Source: Candidatus Brocadiia bacterium
GTDB lineage: Bacteria; Planctomycetota; Brocadiia; SM23-32
Reading direction: 5' to 3'
Assembly: GCA_046483385.1 (NCBI GenBank)
Contig: JAWODG010000220.1
Span: forward strand, 1,029-65,028
DNA: 64,000 nucleotides
Positions within the stretch are counted from its first letter, which is position 1. Each line of letters starts with the position of its first letter. The notes under the pieces are model-generated. The model worked only from the letters and a program-made list of their open reading frames with translations. It was not told the DNA's origin and searched no databases. The position numbers and the translations under genes are program-made. This document shows positions 851 to 40,949 of this stretch, piece by piece.

Positions 851-925
851 GGGCCCATAGCTCAACGGTAGAGCAGCGCACTCATAATGCGCGGGTTGCT
901 GGTTCGAATCCGGCTGGGCCCACCA
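851..925 (+). tRNA. tRNA-Ile2 (anticodon CAU, lysidine-modified type)
   Basis: GGGCCCA acceptor stem pairing with TGGGCCC, D-arm TAGCTCAACGGTAGAGC, anticodon loop CTCATAA, T-loop GGTTCGAATCC, encoded CCA. C4/C5 in the acceptor stem and no initiator features favour Ile2 over Met. Confidence 0.9.
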
Positions 926-2325: not shown

Positions 2326-4707
2326 TCACTCGGCGGCCACCCGCAGGACCTCCGCCACGTCGTCGTGGCCGTTCTCTCGGGCGCGGTCGGCGGGTGTGAA
2401 CCCGTCGCTGTCGCGGGCGTCGGCGTCCGCACCGGCGGCAATGAGCACCTTCACCACCTCCATGTGCCCGGCGGCCGCAGCCATATGCAGGGCCGTCTTT
2501 CGGCGGTTGGGCGACATGGCGTCCGGGCTAACGCCTCTCTCCAACATCCCTCTGACCGCATCCACGTCACCCGCCGCGGCGGCCTCGCGCAGTTGTCGTC
2601 CGCCTCGGTCGGACAGCGCTCCTCGGTCGCCGCGCCCTTCTTCCGGGGCGGCTTCTGCCGCCTCGGTTTCGCCTTCGAGGATGCCCAGTATCTCGTCGAA
2701 ACCTCGCATCCGCGCGATGTCGCCCGGCGTACGGCCGTCCTCGTCCTGCAGGGTCGCGTCCGCTCCGGCGTCCACGAGCGACTGCACGATCGCGGGATAG
2801 CCCTCCAGGCAGGCGTAGTGCAGCGGCGTCAGGCCGGCGTCGTCCCGGGCGTTCACGTCCGCGCCGGCTTCTATGAGGGTGTCCACCACCCGGCTAACGA
2901 CGCTGTGGCCGAGCGTGTAGCCGACCCAGGCGCCCCAGTGGAGCGCGGTGCGGCCGGCCACGTCGCGGGCCTCCAGTTCCGCCCCGTGCTCGATGCAGGC
3001 GCGCACGCGGTCCAGGGTCCAGTCCGGGTCGTGCCGGTAGCCGGTCCAGGCGTTGATGACGGCCGCGTGGAGGACGGTCCAGCCGTCATCGGTCGTGGCG
3101 TTCACGTCCCCACCCTCGCTGATGTAGTGGCGCAGCAGCGGATACGCCTTCTCGTTGTAGGCGCTGGCGGCCATGTGCATGGGCGTCCAGCCGTCGTCGG
3201 CCGGCTCGTTCACGTCGGCGCCGCTTTCGAGCAGGAACTGCACCATGTCCTGGTCCTCGAACCGGTTCCAGTGGCCCCAGAGGGTGGCCATGTGGAGGGG
3301 CGTCCAGCCCTTGATGCGCTTCCAGCGGGGATTTTCGGGCGGCTGGATTCGCTCGCGCAGCTCCTCCGGGCCGGCCACCTCGTCGGTCAGGGCCAGCTCC
3401 CGCAGGTCGTCCTCCGGGCCGCTCTGAATGGTGGCGATGCTCTCGGCGGGCATGTCGAACGTTAGGACGTCTTCGCTGACCTCGGCGTCCTGCGCGACCC
3501 ACGGCGCGTCCTCGTCGGAAACGTAGAGGCGGAAGGTCTCGGGAAGCGCCTGGCCGCCGACCTCAATGGCCACCTCGACGGAATCTTCCGACCGGTTGAT
3601 GAGCACGGCCGTCAGTTTGCCGGAGTCCGGATGGTGGTAGGCGCTGGCCAGAAGCTGCTCGTCGGCCGATTCAGCCGAAATGCGGACGGCGCCGGGGCGG
3701 ACGAAGCGGTAGAAGTGCTTGGCCGGCCAGTAGCCGGTCCGTGGCGTGTGGCCGTCTATGAGGCTGGTGAGTTGCCAGAAAATCCACGCGTTCACGTCGC
3801 CGCCGGCCAGCGCGTTGTGGATAGCGGTAGCGTTGGCCATGGCCCTGTTCCAGCCGCGGGCACCGCCGCCGGTCTCGGTCATCCAGAGCTGCCGGTCGTA
3901 GGGGGCGAGGAACTCCTTGAGCGACTGCCACGTCTCGAAGTCGGGTTTGCCGTGGACACAGAAGAAGCCGGGGAAGTCACGCGTCTCCGGGTCCTCCATC
4001 GTGGGCCGGATGAACCACTTGAGCCGGTCCACCTGCATCGCCATGTCCTCGGGCATCATCAGCTTCGTGGTGATTCCCTCCCGCCGGAACTTCCGGGAGA
4101 TGGCGCGGACGGCCTCGCGGATCTGCGCGGGGTTGTAGATGCAGGAGTAGTACCACTCCTTGAAGTAGAGCTCGTTCTGGGGGCTGAGGCTCATGAACTC
4201 GATGTCCCAGTGCTCTTTGGCGGCCTTCAGGAAGATGGTGAGGAACTCGGCGAACTCGTCCCGCATGTCCGGGCGCAGCTTGCCGCCCTCGATCAGCACG
4301 CGGTTGGTCTTCATGAAGTCCGGCGGCGACCACAGCGAGGTGGTGAACCGGCTGACGCCCCGCTTCTTGAACTCGGAGAGCCACTCCATGCGGGGCGCCA
4401 TCTTGCTGAGGTCCACGGCGTCCCAGTTGATGTGGTCCGGGTCGTCGTCATCGTTCCACGGCTCGATGTTGGGCGGCATGGGCAGCCGCACCAGGCTGAC
4501 GCCGAGGTCGTAGACGAGCATGTCGTAGAAGCCGGGATCGACGTAGGAGTCCGGCAGGAACCAGTAAACCATGCTCCCGCCGAAGCCCTCGATTGTCTGG
4601 TGAGTTTCGCCCGGCCGCAGGACGACCTCTGCGGGCGCGGCGCCGGCCGCCCCCGCGAACACGAACAGGACCGCCAGAAGACCGATCAGCAGCAGACGCG
4701 CTTCCAT
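2326..4707 (-). CDS. Secreted GH30-like glycoside hydrolase fused to C-terminal ankyrin repeats
   Basis: Signal peptide (MEARLLLIGLLAVLFVFAGAAGA), QTIEGFGGS, WSPPDFMKTN, acid/base QNE, nucleophile LWMTE, FVRPGAVRI; then repeated GWTPLH/GADVNA ankyrin motifs. Confidence 0.8.
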   Translation of the reverse strand: MEARLLLIGLLAVLFVFAGAAGAAPAEVVLRPGETHQTIEGFGGSMVYWFLPDSYVDPGFYDMLVYDLGVSLVRLPMPPNIEPWNDDDDPDHINWDAVDLSKMAPRMEWLSEFKKRGVSRFTTSLWSPPDFMKTNRVLIEGGKLRPDMRDEFAEFLTIFLKAAKEHWDIEFMSLSPQNELYFKEWYYSCIYNPAQIREAVRAISRKFRREGITTKLMMPEDMAMQVDRLKWFIRPTMEDPETRDFPGFFCVHGKPDFETWQSLKEFLAPYDRQLWMTETGGGARGWNRAMANATAIHNALAGGDVNAWIFWQLTSLIDGHTPRTGYWPAKHFYRFVRPGAVRISAESADEQLLASAYHHPDSGKLTAVLINRSEDSVEVAIEVGGQALPETFRLYVSDEDAPWVAQDAEVSEDVLTFDMPAESIATIQSGPEDDLRELALTDEVAGPEELRERIQPPENPRWKRIKGWTPLHMATLWGHWNRFEDQDMVQFLLESGADVNEPADDGWTPMHMAASAYNEKAYPLLRHYISEGGDVNATTDDGWTVLHAAVINAWTGYRHDPDWTLDRVRACIEHGAELEARDVAGRTALHWGAWVGYTLGHSVVSRVVDTLIEAGADVNARDDAGLTPLHYACLEGYPAIVQSLVDAGADATLQDEDGRTPGDIARMRGFDEILGILEGETEAAEAAPEEGRGDRGALSDRGGRQLREAAAAGDVDAVRGMLERGVSPDAMSPNRRKTALHMAAAAGHMEVVKVLIAAGADADARDSDGFTPADRARENGHDDVAEVLRVAAE

Positions 4708-34581: not shown

Positions 34582-35933
34582 TCCGCCTCACCTCCCGCGG
34601 CCAGTTGTTCGAGTTCCAGCAGACCCTCGCGCAGGGCGGCCTGACGCTCGGCCAGACGCTCTACACCCGAACCGAGTTCCGGTGACTCCAAGACCCCTCG
34701 GCGCTCGTCCAGCCGCGCCGTCCGTCGATTGAGCGCGCTCTGCAGCGTGCGCAGCACCTTCAGCTCCTCGGCCATGTTGACGGGCGGGCGCTCGCGTTGC
34801 CGCCGCTCACGGTCCTGCCGCTCCCGGTCAGGGGGCCTCTCGGCGGTCTCCGGCGCAGCGGACAGCACCTGCATGAGCGTTTCCAGGATGTCCTCGATGT
34901 CCTTCTGGAGGACGCGCGCGGGCTCGACGTCGGCTTCATCCAGCAGGTCTCCACATGCCAGCAGGTCCTCCTCCAGCCGCGCCATCGCCTCCGGCCAGGC
35001 GACCGTGCGGCCGAAGTCGTCCAGCAGTGCGGCCGCATCCCGGACCCGACGGGCCAGGGCCCGCTCGCGTTCCGCCAGGTCGGCCAGTCGCAGCATAACG
35101 GCGCGCCCCGGGCGCTGGGAACCGCCAACCCGTCCGGCGGTGTCCACGGTGTCAGCGCTGATTTCGCGTTGCTCCTCCAGCATCCCCCTGAGCACCTCGA
35201 CCATGCCGCGCCGCGCCTCGGACCGGCGCTGCGCTTCGGCTCGGCGAATGGCATCCCGCACGGCATCTCGAGCGGCCTCAAGTCGTTCGCGGGCGCTGCC
35301 CTGCTCTGCCTGCGTTTCCGGGACCTGGGCCCGTCGGAGAGCCTCCCGGGCCGCCTCCATGGAGGGAACGGCCAGCGCCAGCTCCTCTCCCCCGGGCGAG
35401 TTGCCCAGCGCCGCGCGCAGTTTCTCCGTGTCCTCCCGTATCTCCTCCTGAAGATCGGCCAGGCGTCCCAGCTCTTCCGGGTCGGAGGGGTCCACTCCGG
35501 AGGTCGCGTCCGCGGCCGCAGTCTGGCGTCGCAGCAGCCCATCCAGTTCCTCGGCCGCCCGCCGCAGGCGGTCCAGCCGCTCCGCTCCCTCACCTTCCGT
35601 CAGGGCATCCGCCATGAGTTGCAGGTCGTCCAGGACGGCCAGCTCCGCCTGCCGCGCCTCCGCGTAGCGGCCTTCCGCGAGAAGCGATGCGATCTCGCGC
35701 ATGCGCGAGACCAGTAGCGCGTCGCGGCTCAGCGTCAGCGCCCGACGCAGGCGGTCCGCGCGCTCGGGCTGTTCGGTCGTCTCGATCAGTTCCAGCAGGC
35801 GCCGTTCCACGCCCTCCATACGCTCCCGGATGCGCTGCTGCTCCGCGGGCAGCTCCTGCGCACGCGCCGTCACCGACAGGCACAGCCCGCCCACTATTGC
35901 TGTCAGCACCACCGGCCGGAGGATTGTGCTCAT
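34578..35933 (-). CDS. Hypothetical exported coiled-coil protein (DUF4175-like)
   Basis: Signal peptide, repeated L..Q..L heptads, EELKVLRTLQ..LNRRT. Confidence 0.7.
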   Translation of the reverse strand: MSTILRPVVLTAIVGGLCLSVTARAQELPAEQQRIRERMEGVERRLLELIETTEQPERADRLRRALTLSRDALLVSRMREIASLLAEGRYAEARQAELAVLDDLQLMADALTEGEGAERLDRLRRAAEELDGLLRRQTAAADATSGVDPSDPEELGRLADLQEEIREDTEKLRAALGNSPGGEELALAVPSMEAAREALRRAQVPETQAEQGSARERLEAARDAVRDAIRRAEAQRRSEARRGMVEVLRGMLEEQREISADTVDTAGRVGGSQRPGRAVMLRLADLAERERALARRVRDAAALLDDFGRTVAWPEAMARLEEDLLACGDLLDEADVEPARVLQKDIEDILETLMQVLSAAPETAERPPDRERQDRERRQRERPPVNMAEELKVLRTLQSALNRRTARLDERRGVLESPELGSGVERLAERQAALREGLLELEQLAAGGEAE

Positions 35934-37963
35934 TCACCGCCCTCCAGCCAGTCCAAAACGTCTGCCGCGCCCTCGTCGGTCCGCTCGAGGACCGAGCGCT
36001 GCTGCTCGCCTATTTCGATCACCGAGGCCGCCACCGCCGCGGTCCCCTCCATCAGAAGCATGTTCTCCCGCACCGCCTCCATGCCTCGGACCGCGTTCGA
36101 GGCGTGGCCGCTGCTCCGCTCAAGCGAAGTGCGGACCGTTTCGGCCACCCGTAAGACGGCCCCATCCGGCGCCGCCAGTTCCTCCAGCGGCGTCACGATC
36201 TCGGCTACCCGTGCTCGGTAAGCTTCCGGCTCCAGCACGCGGTTGTTGCGCAACTGCTCCAGCACGTCGCGGTAAGCGCCGGCCACCTTGGTCAACTCGG
36301 ATGCCAGGTTGCTCTGCTCGCGTTCCACCGCCGCCCGGTCCCGCTCCGTCACTCCGGAATCCCTCAGGCGATTGAGCAGGGATTTCTCCGCCTGAAGGTG
36401 CTGCTCCAGGTCGCGCCTCAAGTCCTCCTGCTGCACCAGCAGGTTGCGGAGCAGCTCCGGGAGCCGCACGATGCGAAACTCCAGCGGCATGCTGCGCCCG
36501 ACGTTCGGCCCACCGGGCTGGCGGTTGTCCCGCACGACGGCTGTCAGGCGAAGACGGCCCCCCGGCTCATATGACCTCTCCCGCAGGTCCAGCACGTATT
36601 CGCTTCGGCGCACCGGGCTCCCGTGACCATCCCACAGCAGCAGACCGACGGGGTCCGCCCCGTTGTTCCCGGTGGAGATTTCGAGTCTCCCCTCTGCCGC
36701 CGCGTAATCGTCCCGGGCGACCACCCGCAGAGGCAGCCGGGCGGAGGGCACCAGCAGACCGCCCACGCCGGGGGCGGTCAATCTGACCTCGGGCGTTTCG
36801 TCGGGCACCGCCCGGAAGCTCGCCCGCAGGGGCGGCTCCATCCGGATGTCGTGCTCGCCAACGAGCACAAACTCGCATTCCACGTCCCGCCGCACGGCGA
36901 ACGAGGAACGTAACTCCCGTTCGCCGACTAATTCCATCTGCTGTACCTGCCCACCGTCCACGCTCCACTGCCCTCCTCGGACGGGAACGGTGGCGGTCAG
37001 TTGCACCTCCACCCGGCTTCCGGCCGGGACGGCGAACTCGGGGGCGTTCCACGACACCACCACGGGCTCGGGGCTGACGTAGGATGGAGGGTGGACAACC
37101 ACCCGCGCCGCGTCCACCTCCGGCCGGGGGACGGCTTCCAGCCGCACCTCCGGCGTCACGCCGTCCCCCGCCGTGGCCTGCAGCACGGCGGACTCCGTGA
37201 CTTCCTTCAAAGAAACAGCGAACTCGCGCGGCGGACGACGCTCCATGGTCAGTGTCCTGGCATCTCCCCCCTCGACCGGGCGCAGCCGGAGGCGCGCCAC
37301 TTCCGGCACCACGCCGTGGGCCAGAGCCGAGACTTCCACATCAGCGCCGCGCGGCACGTAGCGCACCCCGCTCGGGAACCCCACCAGCCGCAACCGTGTG
37401 CGGCGCGGCCACGGCTCTTCCGCCAGCAGCACGTTCCGCCGCAACCAGAGCGACGCCGTTGCCGGACGGAACAGACCGAACGCTGCCAGCAAGGCCAGCA
37501 GCACGAGGGCCACCGCGACCGATCGCAACGGCCTCGTCCAGTTCACCAGGGAACGAACCTCGATGCGGCGGGCGGCAGCTTCGGCCTGACGCACGGCCAC
37601 GGCACGCAACGAAGGCGAGCCGACAGCGCTATCACCGCGCAAAGAGACGGCGCTGGCCAGAACGTCCCGATGGACCGGCAGCCGGCGCTCCAGCTCGATG
37701 GCCAGGTCCACGTCCCCCAGCGGACGGGTCAACGGCCGCACGACCTGCCGGGCAGCCTGCCACAACAGCAGAAGGACGAAAGCGGCCAGCAGCGTCGCCC
37801 GCGCGGGCACGGGAAGCCGCAGAAAGCGGTCGAGGGCGTAGCTGGCGACCACCAACAGAAAGCCCACCTGCACCAGCCGGCCCAACCCGGCCGCAAGCAT
37901 GGCCCCCCGCATAAGATGGCGCAGACGACGCAACGCGGAATACAGGGTGGTCGGCGGATTCAC
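35930..37963 (-). CDS. Membrane protein with Ig-like extracytoplasmic region and coiled coil (DUF4175-like)
   Basis: N-terminal TMs, LAIELERR.P...D.L.SAV, WPRRTRL, VPDETPEV, ARDDY. Confidence 0.7.
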   Translation of the reverse strand: MNPPTTLYSALRRLRHLMRGAMLAAGLGRLVQVGFLLVVASYALDRFLRLPVPARATLLAAFVLLLLWQAARQVVRPLTRPLGDVDLAIELERRLPVHRDVLASAVSLRGDSAVGSPSLRAVAVRQAEAAARRIEVRSLVNWTRPLRSVAVALVLLALLAAFGLFRPATASLWLRRNVLLAEEPWPRRTRLRLVGFPSGVRYVPRGADVEVSALAHGVVPEVARLRLRPVEGGDARTLTMERRPPREFAVSLKEVTESAVLQATAGDGVTPEVRLEAVPRPEVDAARVVVHPPSYVSPEPVVVSWNAPEFAVPAGSRVEVQLTATVPVRGGQWSVDGGQVQQMELVGERELRSSFAVRRDVECEFVLVGEHDIRMEPPLRASFRAVPDETPEVRLTAPGVGGLLVPSARLPLRVVARDDYAAAEGRLEISTGNNGADPVGLLLWDGHGSPVRRSEYVLDLRERSYEPGGRLRLTAVVRDNRQPGGPNVGRSMPLEFRIVRLPELLRNLLVQQEDLRRDLEQHLQAEKSLLNRLRDSGVTERDRAAVEREQSNLASELTKVAGAYRDVLEQLRNNRVLEPEAYRARVAEIVTPLEELAAPDGAVLRVAETVRTSLERSSGHASNAVRGMEAVRENMLLMEGTAAVAASVIEIGEQQRSVLERTDEGAADVLDWLEGGE

Positions 37964-38091
37964 GCGGTCCTTCCCGATTGACGGTGCCACGGGGCGCACC
38001 TTCGGGCATTTGCGTCCCGTATATCAGTTCCCTATAGTATTATAGTTCGTCGGGCACCGGACCCAAAACCCTCAGGCAAACCGAGGTGGAG

Positions 38092-38571
38092 ATGGGCGAG
38101 ATAAAGCAACACCAGGGTAAGCTGAACGCCGCGGGAAAGCGCTTCGCGCTGGTGGTGAGCCGCTACAACGAGTTCTTCTCCAGCCGCCTGCTCAACGGAG
38201 CGGAGGACTGCCTGCTGAGGCACGGCGCCGCGGAGGAGGACCTGGAGGTCTTCCGCGTTCCGGGCTCTTTCGAGATCCCCCTGGTCGCCCGCAAGGTGGC
38301 CGAGTCCGGAAGATTCGATGCCGTCGTCTGCCTGGGCGCAGTCCTGAGGGGTCAGACCTCCCACTTCGACTTCGTCGCCGGCGAATGCGCCAAAGGTGTC
38401 GCGCGCGTGAACATGGACACCGGCGTGCCGACGATCTTCGGGGTGATCACGACCGAGACCGTGGAACAGGCCGTCGATCGCGCCGGAGCGCGAACGGGCA
38501 ACCGCGGCGCCGAAGCCGCCCTGGCGGCCATCGAGATGGCCAATCTTGTGGAGGACATCGCGTCCGGCTGA
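38092..38571 (+). CDS. ribH: 6,7-dimethyl-8-ribityllumazine synthase
   Basis: VVSRYNEFF..LLNGA, VPGSFEIP, CLGAVLRGQTSHFDFVAGE, FGVITTE..EQA.DRAG..GNRG. Confidence 0.97.
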   Translation: MGEIKQHQGKLNAAGKRFALVVSRYNEFFSSRLLNGAEDCLLRHGAAEEDLEVFRVPGSFEIPLVARKVAESGRFDAVVCLGAVLRGQTSHFDFVAGECAKGVARVNMDTGVPTIFGVITTETVEQAVDRAGARTGNRGAEAALAAIEMANLVEDIASG

Positions 38572-38656
38572 GTCCGCCGCCACGCCGCGCCGTGCAACAA
38601 GGTCCCCGCGAACGGACCACGGCGCCCTATTCCCGAAGCCCCCTCTGCTGCGGTAA

Positions 38657-39931
38657 GTGTATTTGAGAAAAGAAACGCAAGCCCGGGAACTGGCCTTGCA
38701 GGCCCTCTACCAGCGTGACCTGGTTGAGGACCGTACGCTGGAGGAGCTTCTGAACTTCTGCGAGCGCAGGGCCCCCGACCCCGTCCGCCCGCTGACTGCG
38801 CGCCTCGTCCGGGGCTGCATCGAGCATCAGCCGACCCTCGACAAGCTGATACGGCGCACGGCCGAAAACTGGAAGCTCGAACGTATGGCCGTCAGCGACC
38901 GCAACATACTGCGGCTCGGCGTCTACGAGATGCTCTACCGTCCGGACACTCCCGCGAAGGTCGCCATCAACGAAGCCATCGAGCTGGCCAAGCGCTACAG
39001 CACCGAAGGTTCCCCCACATTCGTGAACGGTGTGCTCGACAGGATATACAACACCTACATCGCGCACAGAGTGCAGCCCGACCCCGAGCGCGCAGCCGAC
39101 CTCCACGTGCACTCGAACGCCTCCGACGGGTCGGTGCCGCCCTCCGAGCTGCCGGCCATGGCGGCCAAAGCCGGGCTGGACGCTATAGCGCTGACAGACC
39201 ATGACACGCTGGAAGGCGTCGAGACGGCCAGGGAGGGGGGGAAGGAGTGCGGCGTCCTAGTGGTCCCGGGAGTTGAGCTGACCGGTTACGCTCCTGCCGC
39301 TGAAGGAGAGGAAGAGGTTGAGATACACATCATCGGCCTCTATGTTGACGTAGAGGACGAAGCACTGGCCGACCGACTGGAAGAACTGCGGGCCACCCGC
39401 ACGGAAAGGGTGCGTAAGATAGCCGAACTTCTCCAGGACCTAGGCGAGGACATCGAAGCCGAGGACATCCTGGCCAGAGCCGGCGGGGACTCGGTCGGAC
39501 GCGTCCACGTGGCGCGCGAACTGGTCGAACGCGGGGTGTGCCGGGACGTCAGCGACGCCTTCAACCGCTTTCTGGCGCAGGGCGAGCCGGCGTACGTTCC
39601 GAAGGAGCACATGACGCCCGCCGAGGCGGTCAAGCTTATCAGACGGGCCGGAGGCTGCGCAGTGCTGTCCCATCCCGGCCTGCTGGCCGACATGGAGATG
39701 TATCTGCCCGAACTGTTGGAGGCCGGGCTGGACGCGCTGGAAGTGCACTATCCACGCCACAGCGCGAGCCAGGAGAAAGAATTGATGGACCTGGCCGAAG
39801 AGTATGACCTGCTGGTCACCGGGGGAAGTGACTTCCACGGGGAGGCCAAACCCTACATCAGTCTCGGGCAGGAGACGGTCTCCTTCATCGAACTTCACAA
39901 GTTAGAGCAGCGCGCGCTGGCCCGGGTCTGA
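38657..39931 (+). CDS. nusB: Fusion of transcription antitermination factor NusB and a PHP-domain (YciV/TrpH/RNase AM-like) phosphoesterase
   Basis: N-terminal [46 protein letters not shown]...FVNGVLD; C-terminal [43 protein letters not shown]; a single uninterrupted frame in the ribH-nusB-ftsY context. Confidence 0.9.
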
Positions 39932-39968
39932 AGGAGCCGGCCGCCGATAATCCAGGGAAGCGACAACC

Positions 39969-40949
39969 ATGTGTCCCTTTGGTCTGTTCAGCAAGAAAGA
40001 GAAGCCCGAGGAGGAAGAGCCGGCGCAGCCGGAAACCTCCGGCGGCTTTCTGGGCAAATTGCGAAGCGGCCTCGCGAAGACGCGGCAGAAGGTCAGCGGC
40101 GGCCTCCGCTCGGTGCTCTCCCTGCACCGGTCGATAGATGAGGAACTGCTGGAGGAGCTGGAAGAGCAGCTCTACCTGGCGGACGTCGGCCCCCGGGCCG
40201 TAATGCGTTACTGCGAAGAGCTGCGGCAGGCCCACAGTGAAGGCCAGATCTCGGAGTCCGAGGAAGTCATCGACTTCCTGAAGGAGATGATGCGCGAGGA
40301 CCTGAGCCACTGGGACACCGAACTGCACCTGCCGGACGAGGGTCCCGCCGTCATCATGGTGGCGGGAGTCAACGGGTCCGGCAAGACCACAAGCATCGCC
40401 AAGCTGGGCAACCGCTTTCTTGAGGACGGCCGAAGCGTGCTGCTGGCCGCCAGCGACACCTTTCGCGCCGCCGCCATAGAGCAACTCGAGATATGGGCCG
40501 AGCGCATTGGCGCGGACATCGTCAGTAACGAGAGTGCCGACCCGGCGGCCGTGACCTTCGACGCCGCTGAGAAGGCCATTGCGCGCGACTACGATGTCCT
40601 CATTATCGACACCGCCGGCCGGCTGCACACCCGGCGCAACCTGATGCGCGAGCTCCAGAAGATAAACCGGGTGGTTGGCAAGAAGATACCCGGAGCCCCC
40701 CACGAGACGCTGATGGTACTGGACGCCACCACGGGGCAGAACGCCATCAGCCAGGCCATCCGCTTCAATGAGAGCATCGAGCTGACCGGCATCGTGCTGG
40801 CCAAGCTCGACGGCACCGCCAAGGGGGGCGTCATCTTCGGGATGCAGGACCAGATCGATATCCCCGTCAAGTTCATCGGCATCGGCGAAGGCGCCGACGA
40901 CCTGGTGCCCTTCCGGCCGGAACCCTTCGTCGAGGCCCTGTTCGACTGA
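39969..40949 (+). CDS. ftsY: Signal recognition particle receptor FtsY
   Basis: GVNGSGKTTSIAKL, DTFRAAAIEQL, DTAGRLH, LDATTGQN, KLDGTAKGG. Confidence 0.97.
   Translation: MCPFGLFSKKEKPEEEEPAQPETSGGFLGKLRSGLAKTRQKVSGGLRSVLSLHRSIDEELLEELEEQLYLADVGPRAVMRYCEELRQAHSEGQISESEEVIDFLKEMMREDLSHWDTELHLPDEGPAVIMVAGVNGSGKTTSIAKLGNRFLEDGRSVLLAASDTFRAAAIEQLEIWAERIGADIVSNESADPAAVTFDAAEKAIARDYDVLIIDTAGRLHTRRNLMRELQKINRVVGKKIPGAPHETLMVLDATTGQNAISQAIRFNESIELTGIVLAKLDGTAKGGVIFGMQDQIDIPVKFIGIGEGADDLVPFRPEPFVEALFD

Follow-up and report, generated by a model that had tools for sequence, protein, structure and literature searches.

A single open reading frame (ORF) in the genome of a Candidatus Brocadiia bacterium joins the transcription antitermination factor NusB to a PHP phosphoesterase domain of the TrpH/RNase AM/Cv1693 type. 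The ORF lies in a stretch of 64,000 nucleotides of contig JAWODG010000220.1 (assembly GCA_046483385.1), which was analyzed as a whole and is referred to here as the window; positions are those of the window unless another contig is named. The fusion is real and is conserved across the bacterial class to which the anammox bacteria belong. With regard to its function, the best reading, which we favor tentatively and with somewhat less than even confidence, is that of a 5′-3′ PHP exonuclease that is tethered by NusB and acts at the ribosomal RNA (rRNA) antitermination complex.

The nusB::PHP ORF extends from 38657 to 39931 on the forward strand and encodes 424 amino acids, without an internal stop codon on translation. 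It starts with a GTG at 38657, or with a TTG two codons further in, at 38663; the latter may be the true start, because a 77%-identical homolog (P0004) starts with MRKETQ. The protein is 100% identical to cluster P0002 of the protein collection described below. An earlier note on this DNA, made by a model from the letters alone, had reported one 424-residue ORF at the ribH-nusB position, and its coordinates, architecture and position proved to be right when compared with the ORF list, the translation and the matches to Pfam and NCBIfam models.

Conservation of the Fusion in Brocadiia and Related Genomes

Of the 120 best clusters (90% identity) of a large protein collection, 118 contain both the NusB domain PF01029 and the PHP domain PF02811, at identities of 42–100%; the other two are shorter, and one of these is marked partial. 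Where the clusters are named, they are called “transcription antitermination factor NusB”, and they derive from metagenome-assembled genomes (MAGs) of Planctomycetota, Brocadiia, Brocadiales, Brocadiaceae or Hypogeohydataceae. We also inspected 401 Planctomycetota genomes, 22 of which belong to the same class as the window. Twenty of these 22 contain a full-length match without a stop codon, some of them as single contigs. The 21st (G296) also carries the fusion, through a long linker; in the 22nd (G251) the match is cut by the end of a contig. Two genomes of another family (G368 and G355) are likewise fused. The possibility raised in the earlier note, that the fusion might be unique to this assembly, is therefore removed by both the clusters and the genomes (21 of 22 fused). 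Extension of PHP matches into the C-terminus of NusB was considered for five further genomes (G196, G310, G237, G212, and G172) and rejected, as no NusB domain was present in the flanks looked at, which for G196 comprised an upstream flank of only about 500 nucleotides, up to the contig end.

The window derives from a metagenome-type assembly of 4.63 Mb in 241 contigs (89% complete, 6.84% contamination), a kind of source in which the loss of a stop codon or a frameshift in the contig could create an apparent fusion. Such an assembly or sequencing artefact can be dismissed for practical purposes, as the architecture recurs in clusters from several sources and in single-contig genomes, and both domains are under conservation. 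In addition, contigs from sequencing runs cover the locus. Run X1, the likely source run, gave a contig of 5845 nucleotides over 38400–40200 with 0 differences, and run X3, from another study, gave a contig of 642 nucleotides over 38834–39474 that runs across the junction and differs by 54 substitutions and 0 gaps. In run X2, pieces over 39082–39993 show no insertion or deletion within the ORF. Neither a stop nor a frameshift was seen across the junction in these independent contigs.

The earlier note knew of no described example of such a protein. This stands for the literature, insofar as a full-text search, with most subscription journals outside its coverage, found no paper on a nusB-PHP fusion or gene pair. 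The phylogeny of 1,621 RNase AM sequences in PMC11528712 may, however, already contain nusB-linked members. It does not stand for the databases, where well over a hundred such fused proteins are found under the simple name “NusB”. Both domains are of known kinds, and as far as can be seen it is their conserved union and its implication that are new.

The NusB Half and boxA Elements

The NusB domain comprises residues 8–131 (38678–39049, forward strand; PF01029, E = 1.6e-40, 139 bits at a cut-off of 23.1). The protein also passes the NCBIfam nusB equivalog model TIGR01951 (143.5 bits, cut-off 88.35), so that the complete NusB domain claimed in the earlier note is confirmed at both thresholds, and this half of the fusion is the sole NusB match in the 89%-complete genome. 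It shares 38% identity with E. coli NusB and keeps Tyr18 and two signature blocks, one of them FVNGVLD. Tyr18 aligns with Tyr18 of E. coli, which we take to have a role in S10 binding, and is invariant across 49 fused homologs. The position of E. coli Asp118 is occupied by Gly in the window protein and by Asn in 40 of the 49 homologs. Structure prediction yields an all-helical NusB fold with its helices within residues 5–135, and the modeled fold resembles Thermotoga maritima NusB with a template modeling (TM) score of 0.82 and the NusB of the NusB-NusE-boxA complex 3r2c with a TM score of 0.87.

In passing the equivalog model, in its predicted fold and in the presence of boxA in the rRNA leader, the NusB half is like the stand-alone NusB proteins of E. 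coli, T. maritima and Aquifex (3R2C); unlike these, the window protein carries an enzyme of 280 residues on its C-terminus. A precedent for a NusB-like N-terminal domain joined to an rRNA-acting enzyme is RsmB (Sun), the 16S rRNA methyltransferase that forms 5-methylcytosine 967 (m5C967). Models for RsmB match residues 6–135 of the fusion protein weakly (61.9 bits at a cut-off of 319). The N-terminal domain of RsmB is a diverged paralog, whereas the NusB half of the window protein passes the equivalog model and is the only NusB of the genome, and the enzyme part is of the nuclease/phosphatase type rather than a methyltransferase.

In the genome of the window, a canonical boxA (GCGCTCTTTGACAAA) is located 147 nucleotides before the start of the 16S gene and about 20 nucleotides after a near-perfect sigma-70-type promoter, TTGACA-17-TATAAT (both at about 1864–1803 on the minus strand of contig C82, locus L114, by sequence pattern match). 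A second promoter-like TTGACA is present further upstream of 16S. The 23S gene is not in this assembly. In fused relatives, boxA-like elements were found in all six rrn loci of five genomes, both 85–122 nucleotides before 16S and 244–451 nucleotides past its 3′ end. Judged by these sequence elements, the usual NusB-boxA system seems to be in place. A second exact match to the boxA 12-mer in the window's genome (C13:11718) falls within long ORFs, about 500 nucleotides from a tRNA, and was treated as chance; this reading also rests on a reversed-pattern control, which was not poorer in matches (24 against 12).

The Linker and the PHP Half

The two domain matches are separated by a linker of 14 amino acids (residues 132–145; 39050–39091, forward strand), modeled with a predicted local distance difference test (pLDDT) value of about 82. 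Among the 49 fused homologs the linker measures 14–47 amino acids (median 30), and the majority fraction of the alignment is 0.29 in the linker, compared to 0.70 in NusB and 0.63 in the PHP part. The PHP phosphoesterase domain spans residues 146–406 (39092–39874, forward strand; NCBIfam match span), whereas the Pfam PHP model PF02811 covers its N-terminal part (residues 148–216; 43.9 bits, cut-off 26.4). The highest scoring PHP-type model is NF041577, the equivalog of the 3′,5′-nucleoside bisphosphate (pAp) phosphatase, with 201.8 bits at a cut-off of 400. The RNase AM equivalog NF047791, with which E. coli Rnm scores 505.9 bits, gives 183.8 bits at a cut-off of 375. By sequence, the PHP half matches the solved chains 9etk, 7ug9, 3e0f (a Bifidobacterium phosphoesterase) and 2yb1 about equally, and it shares 35% identity with E. 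coli Rnm (YciV/TrpH) over 265 residues.

The predicted structure of the fusion has a pLDDT of 92.7 and a predicted TM score of 0.80, the latter suggesting that the arrangement is a defined one. The modeled PHP half is comparable to solved chains of the family, with TM scores of 0.79–0.87, including 0.83 to Vibrio cholerae RNase AM. As in RNase AM (E. coli and V. cholerae; 7UG9 and 9ETK) and in Cv1693 of Chromobacterium violaceum (2YB1), for which the scores are 0.79–0.83, the predicted PHP fold contains an insertion lobe, located at about residues 235–330 (39359–39646, forward strand; model helices 235–261 to 321–330). No solved chain spanning both a NusB and a PHP domain was found in the structure comparison. 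A pairing prediction of NusB residues 1–135 with PHP residues 146–424 gave scores of 0.33, 0.01, and 0.21 (median 0.21, mark 0.32) with controls not folded, and is no evidence either way on docking of the two parts.

The active site is conserved. The nine metal ligands of the window protein (H150, H152, D157, H182, E207, H224, H339, D392, and H394) are invariant in the 49 fused homologs, are kept in all 33 fused and all 52 adjacent PHP domains of the samples described below, and align with H13, H15, D20, H45, E72, H83, H198, D255, and H257 of E. coli Rnm. The available part of PMC9410882 names the roles of these residues in the trinuclear metal site for all except H15. The arginines of the 5′-phosphate pocket (R248, R251, and R282), H284 and the stacking phenylalanine F302, all in the insertion lobe, are likewise invariant in the 49 homologs. 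R248, R251, R282, and F302 correspond to R99, R102, R134, and F154 of Cv1693 and to R107, R110, R141, and F161 of E. coli RNase AM; in these enzymes the pocket arginines bury the 5′-phosphate of the first nucleotide and the phenylalanine stacks on a base, according to PMC9410882 and PMC11528712. R248 and R251 are kept in all 33 fused and 52 adjacent PHP domains, R282 in 33 of 33 and 49 of 52, and F302 in 33 of 33 and 50 of 52, respectively. The window protein is thus like RNase AM and Cv1693 in its ligands, its three-arginine pocket and its stacking phenylalanine, and unlike both in being fused to NusB. It also differs from RNase AM at the position of E. coli Arg201, which forms a salt bridge to the scissile phosphate and is replaced by Leu342; this position is Leu in 36 and Arg in one of the 49 homologs, and is variable in stand-alone members as well.

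By these sequence comparisons, the PHP half belongs to the TrpH/RNase AM family only in a wide sense, and is an equivalog of neither named enzyme. The motifs listed for it in the earlier note (HxH, SDG, TDHD, E, H, HP, SDFH, and the insertion) are all present and invariant in the 49 homologs. Its description there as RNase AM (YciV/TrpH)-like holds for fold and active site; it does not extend to the score, which is below the equivalog cut-off, or to overall identity with E. coli Rnm. The phylogeny of the PHP part, which the note had proposed to compare with RNase AM, places E. coli Rnm outside a weakly supported group of nusB-linked PHP domains, as described in the next section.

An Unfused Gene Pair and the Origin of the Fusion

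To place the fusion, nusB loci were scanned in one genome per species, and the best 80 of 580 loci, a sample biased to high scores, were classified by profiles built from the NusB and PHP halves. Six of these 80 are fused (one Brocadiaceae MAG, three Scalindua, and two Planctomycetota). In 49, a separate PHP gene comes after nusB in the same orientation; most of these are Candidatus Omnitrophota, and some are labeled uncultured Planctomycetia or Planctomycetales. The remaining 25 lack a PHP within 4 kb of nusB; Mariniblastus, Gemmatales, Phycisphaerales, Desulfobacteria, Atribacterota, and Desulfosporosinus are among them. A start codon overlaps the stop codon of nusB by 4 nucleotides in 20 of the 49 adjacent loci, and by 14 in six more. 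An evenly drawn sample of 46 Omnitrophota genomes comprises 17 with the two genes adjacent, 6 with a PHP gene on another contig, and 23 with NusB alone. Five further Planctomycetota genomes have an adjacent, unfused pair.

In the Omnitrophota pair, both families and their order are those of the fusion, and stop and start codons overlap; the pair differs from the window locus in yielding two polypeptides and in its layout, which is ribH-nusB-PHP-ribD (locus L052, and L070 by ORF sizes) as opposed to ribH-nusB::PHP-ftsY. The fusion descends from an older nusB-PHP pair with overlapping stop and start codons, which is kept unfused in Omnitrophota and in some Planctomycetota.

A maximum-likelihood tree of 127 PHP domains contains one group (Shimodaira-Hasegawa-like approximate likelihood ratio test, SH-aLRT, 80) with all 33 fused and 49 of the 51 adjacent sequences, together with 11 unlabeled representatives and 3 stand-alone sequences. 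E. coli Rnm and the second PHP paralog of the window's genome fall outside this nusB-linked group. When all 33 fused sequences were constrained to a single clade, the resulting tree exceeded the free quick-search tree by 39 log-likelihood units, with a p-value of 0.925 in the approximately unbiased test (p-AU). As the single-clade tree is not rejected and is the more likely of the two, the fusion may have arisen just once.

Three of these five Planctomycetota genomes with an unfused pair (G188, G171, and G221; loci L019, L020, and L021) carry nusB and PHP in the same frame, with a single stop codon (TAG or TGA) after nusB, followed by one sense codon and then a TTG start. A GGAG-like stretch is found just upstream in two of these junctions. 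They look like intermediates between gene pair and fusion, or like sites of occasional read-through. In one Omnitrophota genome (G448:C59:6177-7453) the PHP match beside nusB lies in two frames (query residues 145–292 and 291–418), possibly because of a frameshift or a sequencing error in the record.

Gene Neighborhood

The gene for 6,7-dimethyl-8-ribityllumazine synthase, ribH (38086–38571, forward strand; Pfam DMRL_synthase, E = 7.9e-55), ends 85 nucleotides upstream of the fusion ORF, and ftsY (39969–40949, forward strand; SRP54 GTPase match, E = 7.6e-74) begins 37 nucleotides downstream of it. No terminator-like sites were found on the forward strand between ribH, the fusion gene and ftsY. 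As in E. coli, nusB thus follows ribH, while E. coli rnm, unlike the window locus, is located beside the trp operon. A ribH gene lies less than 300 nucleotides upstream of nusB in all 20 fused, 49 of 54 adjacent and 21 of 25 NusB-only loci. Downstream, ftsY is present in 18 of the 20 fused loci, in the five Planctomycetota loci with an adjacent pair and in 13 of the 25 loci with NusB only. In the Omnitrophota locus L052, ribD (TIGR00326, 359.5 bits) directly follows the PHP gene; judged by its ORF sizes, locus L070 is arranged in the same way, with no ribH upstream and rib-like ORFs after the pair. Half of the evenly drawn Omnitrophota genomes (23 of 46) have ribH and no nusB-linked PHP. A ribH match is absent from 5 of 151 Omnitrophota genomes, one of which has the pair at a contig start, while four are without a NusB match, two of these also without a PHP match, and none of the five was informative; no genome with the nusB-PHP pair and without rib genes was found among the 151. 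As ribH stands beside nusB regardless of PHP, and ribD can follow PHP, the context cannot separate a link to NusB from a link to the riboflavin operon, a confounder that the earlier note did not see.

A 689-residue ORF (35930–37999, reverse strand) is divergent from ribH and matches no Pfam family at E ≤ 0.01. In an Rfam scan of the whole window at the gathering threshold, a tRNA gene at 851–922 (forward strand) was the sole match, and no riboswitch was found near ribH. An RNA library (run X4) contained two short, 100%-identical contigs, one on ribH and one on 39591–39690. These were not counted as expression: their share is too small, and they may reflect carry-over of DNA.

Genes for RNA and Phosphate Metabolism

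RNase E/G is present in the genome of the window, and RNase J had no match in it at 89% completeness. At the same completeness, no match was found to the inositol monophosphatase (IMPase) family PF00459, to which SuhB, CysQ, and IMPase belong, while 14 of 14 control genomes were positive. Within the lineages that carry the fusion, the family was found in none of five genomes of family f3, in all 17 of family f2 and in both fused genomes of family f102. More broadly, it is present in 360 of 401 Planctomycetota and 55 of 61 Omnitrophota genomes.

The second TrpH-type PHP paralog of the window's genome (locus L003, G000:C211, 1399–2325, reverse strand; a frame of 309 amino acids) keeps the nine metal ligands and has Lys and Gln in place of two of the three arginines of the 5′-phosphate pocket, so its substrate may differ. 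Its neighbors, encoding a lipid A acyltransferase, a nucleotidyltransferase, and a secretin-like protein, are uninformative.

An Omnitrophota locus (L131, G503:C2) has four consecutive ORFs (914–1495, 1438–2337, 2359–3141, and 3160–3774) for adenosine 5′-phosphosulfate (APS) kinase, a PHP protein, the reductase of 3′-phosphoadenosine 5′-phosphosulfate (PAPS), and ATP sulfurylase, respectively. The PHP protein of this sulfate-assimilation cluster is likely a pAp phosphatase. A FastTree phylogeny places it among stand-alone PHPs and not in the nusB-linked group.

Possible Functions of the Fused PHP Domain

If the fused protein acts in rRNA synthesis, its NusB half would, together with S10 (NusE), bind boxA on the nascent pre-rRNA in the antitermination complex, and the PHP domain, on its linker of 14–47 amino acids, would be held at the RNA exit region. 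There it would remove nucleotides in the 5′ to 3′ direction from 5′-monophosphorylated ends made by RNase III or RNase E/G. The outcome would be that the 5′ ends of 16S and 23S precursors are trimmed, or that excised leader and spacer fragments bearing boxA are cleared. The same partnership would operate in trans in Omnitrophota. RNase AM of E. coli is reported to mature the 5′ ends of 5S, 23S, and 16S rRNA (PMC7261194).

On comparative grounds, this tethered exonuclease appears the best-supported reading, favored by the class-wide fusion, the coupled pair in a second phylum, the intact nucleotide-type pocket, the rRNA role of RNase AM, and the presence of RNase E/G where no RNase J was found. 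The Rosetta-stone argument of the earlier note, in which fusion points to joint function, gains support because a conserved, translationally coupled pair exists in a second phylum and boxA is found in the rRNA leaders. The fusion hints at a physical coupling of rRNA synthesis and trimming. A fuller version, in which an RNase AM-type nuclease is an in-cis subunit of the antitermination complex in Brocadiia, trimming or clearing RNA during transcription, and an in-trans, translationally coupled subunit in Omnitrophota, is conceivable, though less likely than not.

Several observations weigh against the tethered exonuclease. The pAp-phosphatase model slightly outscores the RNase AM model, with both at about half of their cut-offs. 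The PHP domain can be at most an accessory, because NusB occurs without it in 23 of 46 Omnitrophota genomes and in 25 of the best 80 loci. Overlapping neighbor genes can fuse by a one-base change, for which no functional logic is needed. The linker is variable and poorly conserved, and therefore makes no case for a fixed interface. In the tree of PHP domains the backbone is unresolved, and the nusB-linked group, at SH-aLRT 80, leaves 2 of 51 adjacent sequences outside. In E. coli, RNase AM carries out the last trimming of 5′ ends late, on particles that are already assembled, and not during transcription. Lastly, ribH adjoins nusB with or without PHP, and ribD follows PHP in L052, the one Omnitrophota locus scanned.

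A rather unlikely explanation is that the PHP domain is a housekeeping pAp phosphatase and/or a nuclease for short oligoribonucleotides, fused to NusB by operon overlap, so that the two domains would be independent and the tether without function. The 4-nucleotide overlap of stop and start would allow fusion by a single-base change, and NF041577 scores above NF047791 both for the fused protein and for nusB-linked PHPs that are unfused (179.1 against 150.1 and 182.3 against 168.5 bits). Such a role would also fit the Omnitrophota family member between APS kinase and PAPS reductase, in a pathway that produces pAp, and the missing IMPase/CysQ match in the window's 89%-complete genome, when all 14 controls have one. 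With the pocket of the genome's other paralog degenerate, the fused copy may be the sole competent enzyme, and RNase AM enzymes double as diribonucleases according to PMC11528712. Yet the sulfate-operon PHP stands with the stand-alone PHPs and not in the nusB-linked group, the nusB-PHP order and its tight coupling are maintained in two phyla, and 21 of 22 genomes of the class retain the fusion. Moreover, whether the IMPase family is lacking does not follow the presence of the fusion, as the family is present in all f2 genomes, was found in none of the five of f3 and is common in Omnitrophota. Improbable, in turn, is that the PHP domain supplies the missing phosphatase of riboflavin synthesis, which would dephosphorylate the 5-amino-6-ribitylamino-uracil 5′-phosphate made by RibD for use by RibH, with nusB merely embedded in rib operons. 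This would account for the proximity of ribH to nusB in 69 of 74 PHP-bearing loci (fused or adjacent) and for ribD right after PHP in L052, with L070 alike by ORF sizes, and phosphomonoesterases are known within the PHP superfamily. However, the riboflavin intermediate has one phosphate, while R248, R251, and R282 form a pocket for a second and stand with F302 as in RNase AM and Cv1693. The ribH-nusB adjacency is equally common in loci without PHP (21 of 25), half of the 46 Omnitrophota genomes have ribH and no such PHP, and in Planctomycetota the PHP domain stays with or in nusB and is followed by ftsY, not ribD. A PHP-type enzyme for the ribitylamino-uracil step was not found in the literature, as judged by listings.

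SuhB belongs to the rRNA antitermination complex as a subunit with the inositol-monophosphatase fold, and is related to the pAp phosphatase CysQ. That the PHP domain stands in for SuhB as a structural part of this complex is very improbable, even though the IMPase family is unmatched in the window's genome and in all five genomes of family f3, and pAp phosphatases occur in both the family of SuhB and the PHP family. The IMPase family is widespread in fused lineages (17 of 17 f2 genomes and both fused f102 genomes) and in Omnitrophota (55 of 61), and there is therefore no general complementarity. Replacement of SuhB/CysQ as a general rule was rejected for the same family's presence in 360 of 401 Planctomycetota, including all f2 genomes. 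The strict conservation of the catalytic residues also argues for an enzyme and not a scaffold.

Implications

For annotation, the label “transcription antitermination factor NusB” hides a complete second enzyme. Were one of the alternative functions true, a pAp phosphatase or a long-sought phosphatase of the riboflavin pathway would be assigned in two poorly studied phyla. The rRNA antitermination complex is viewed as an RNA chaperone that aids the folding of nascent rRNA. If the fused PHP domain is an exonuclease acting at this complex, it would be the first known processing nuclease to be physically integrated in a bacterial antitermination complex. With a class-wide fusion and a coupled gene pair in a second phylum, the coupling of antitermination to pre-rRNA nucleases becomes directly testable.

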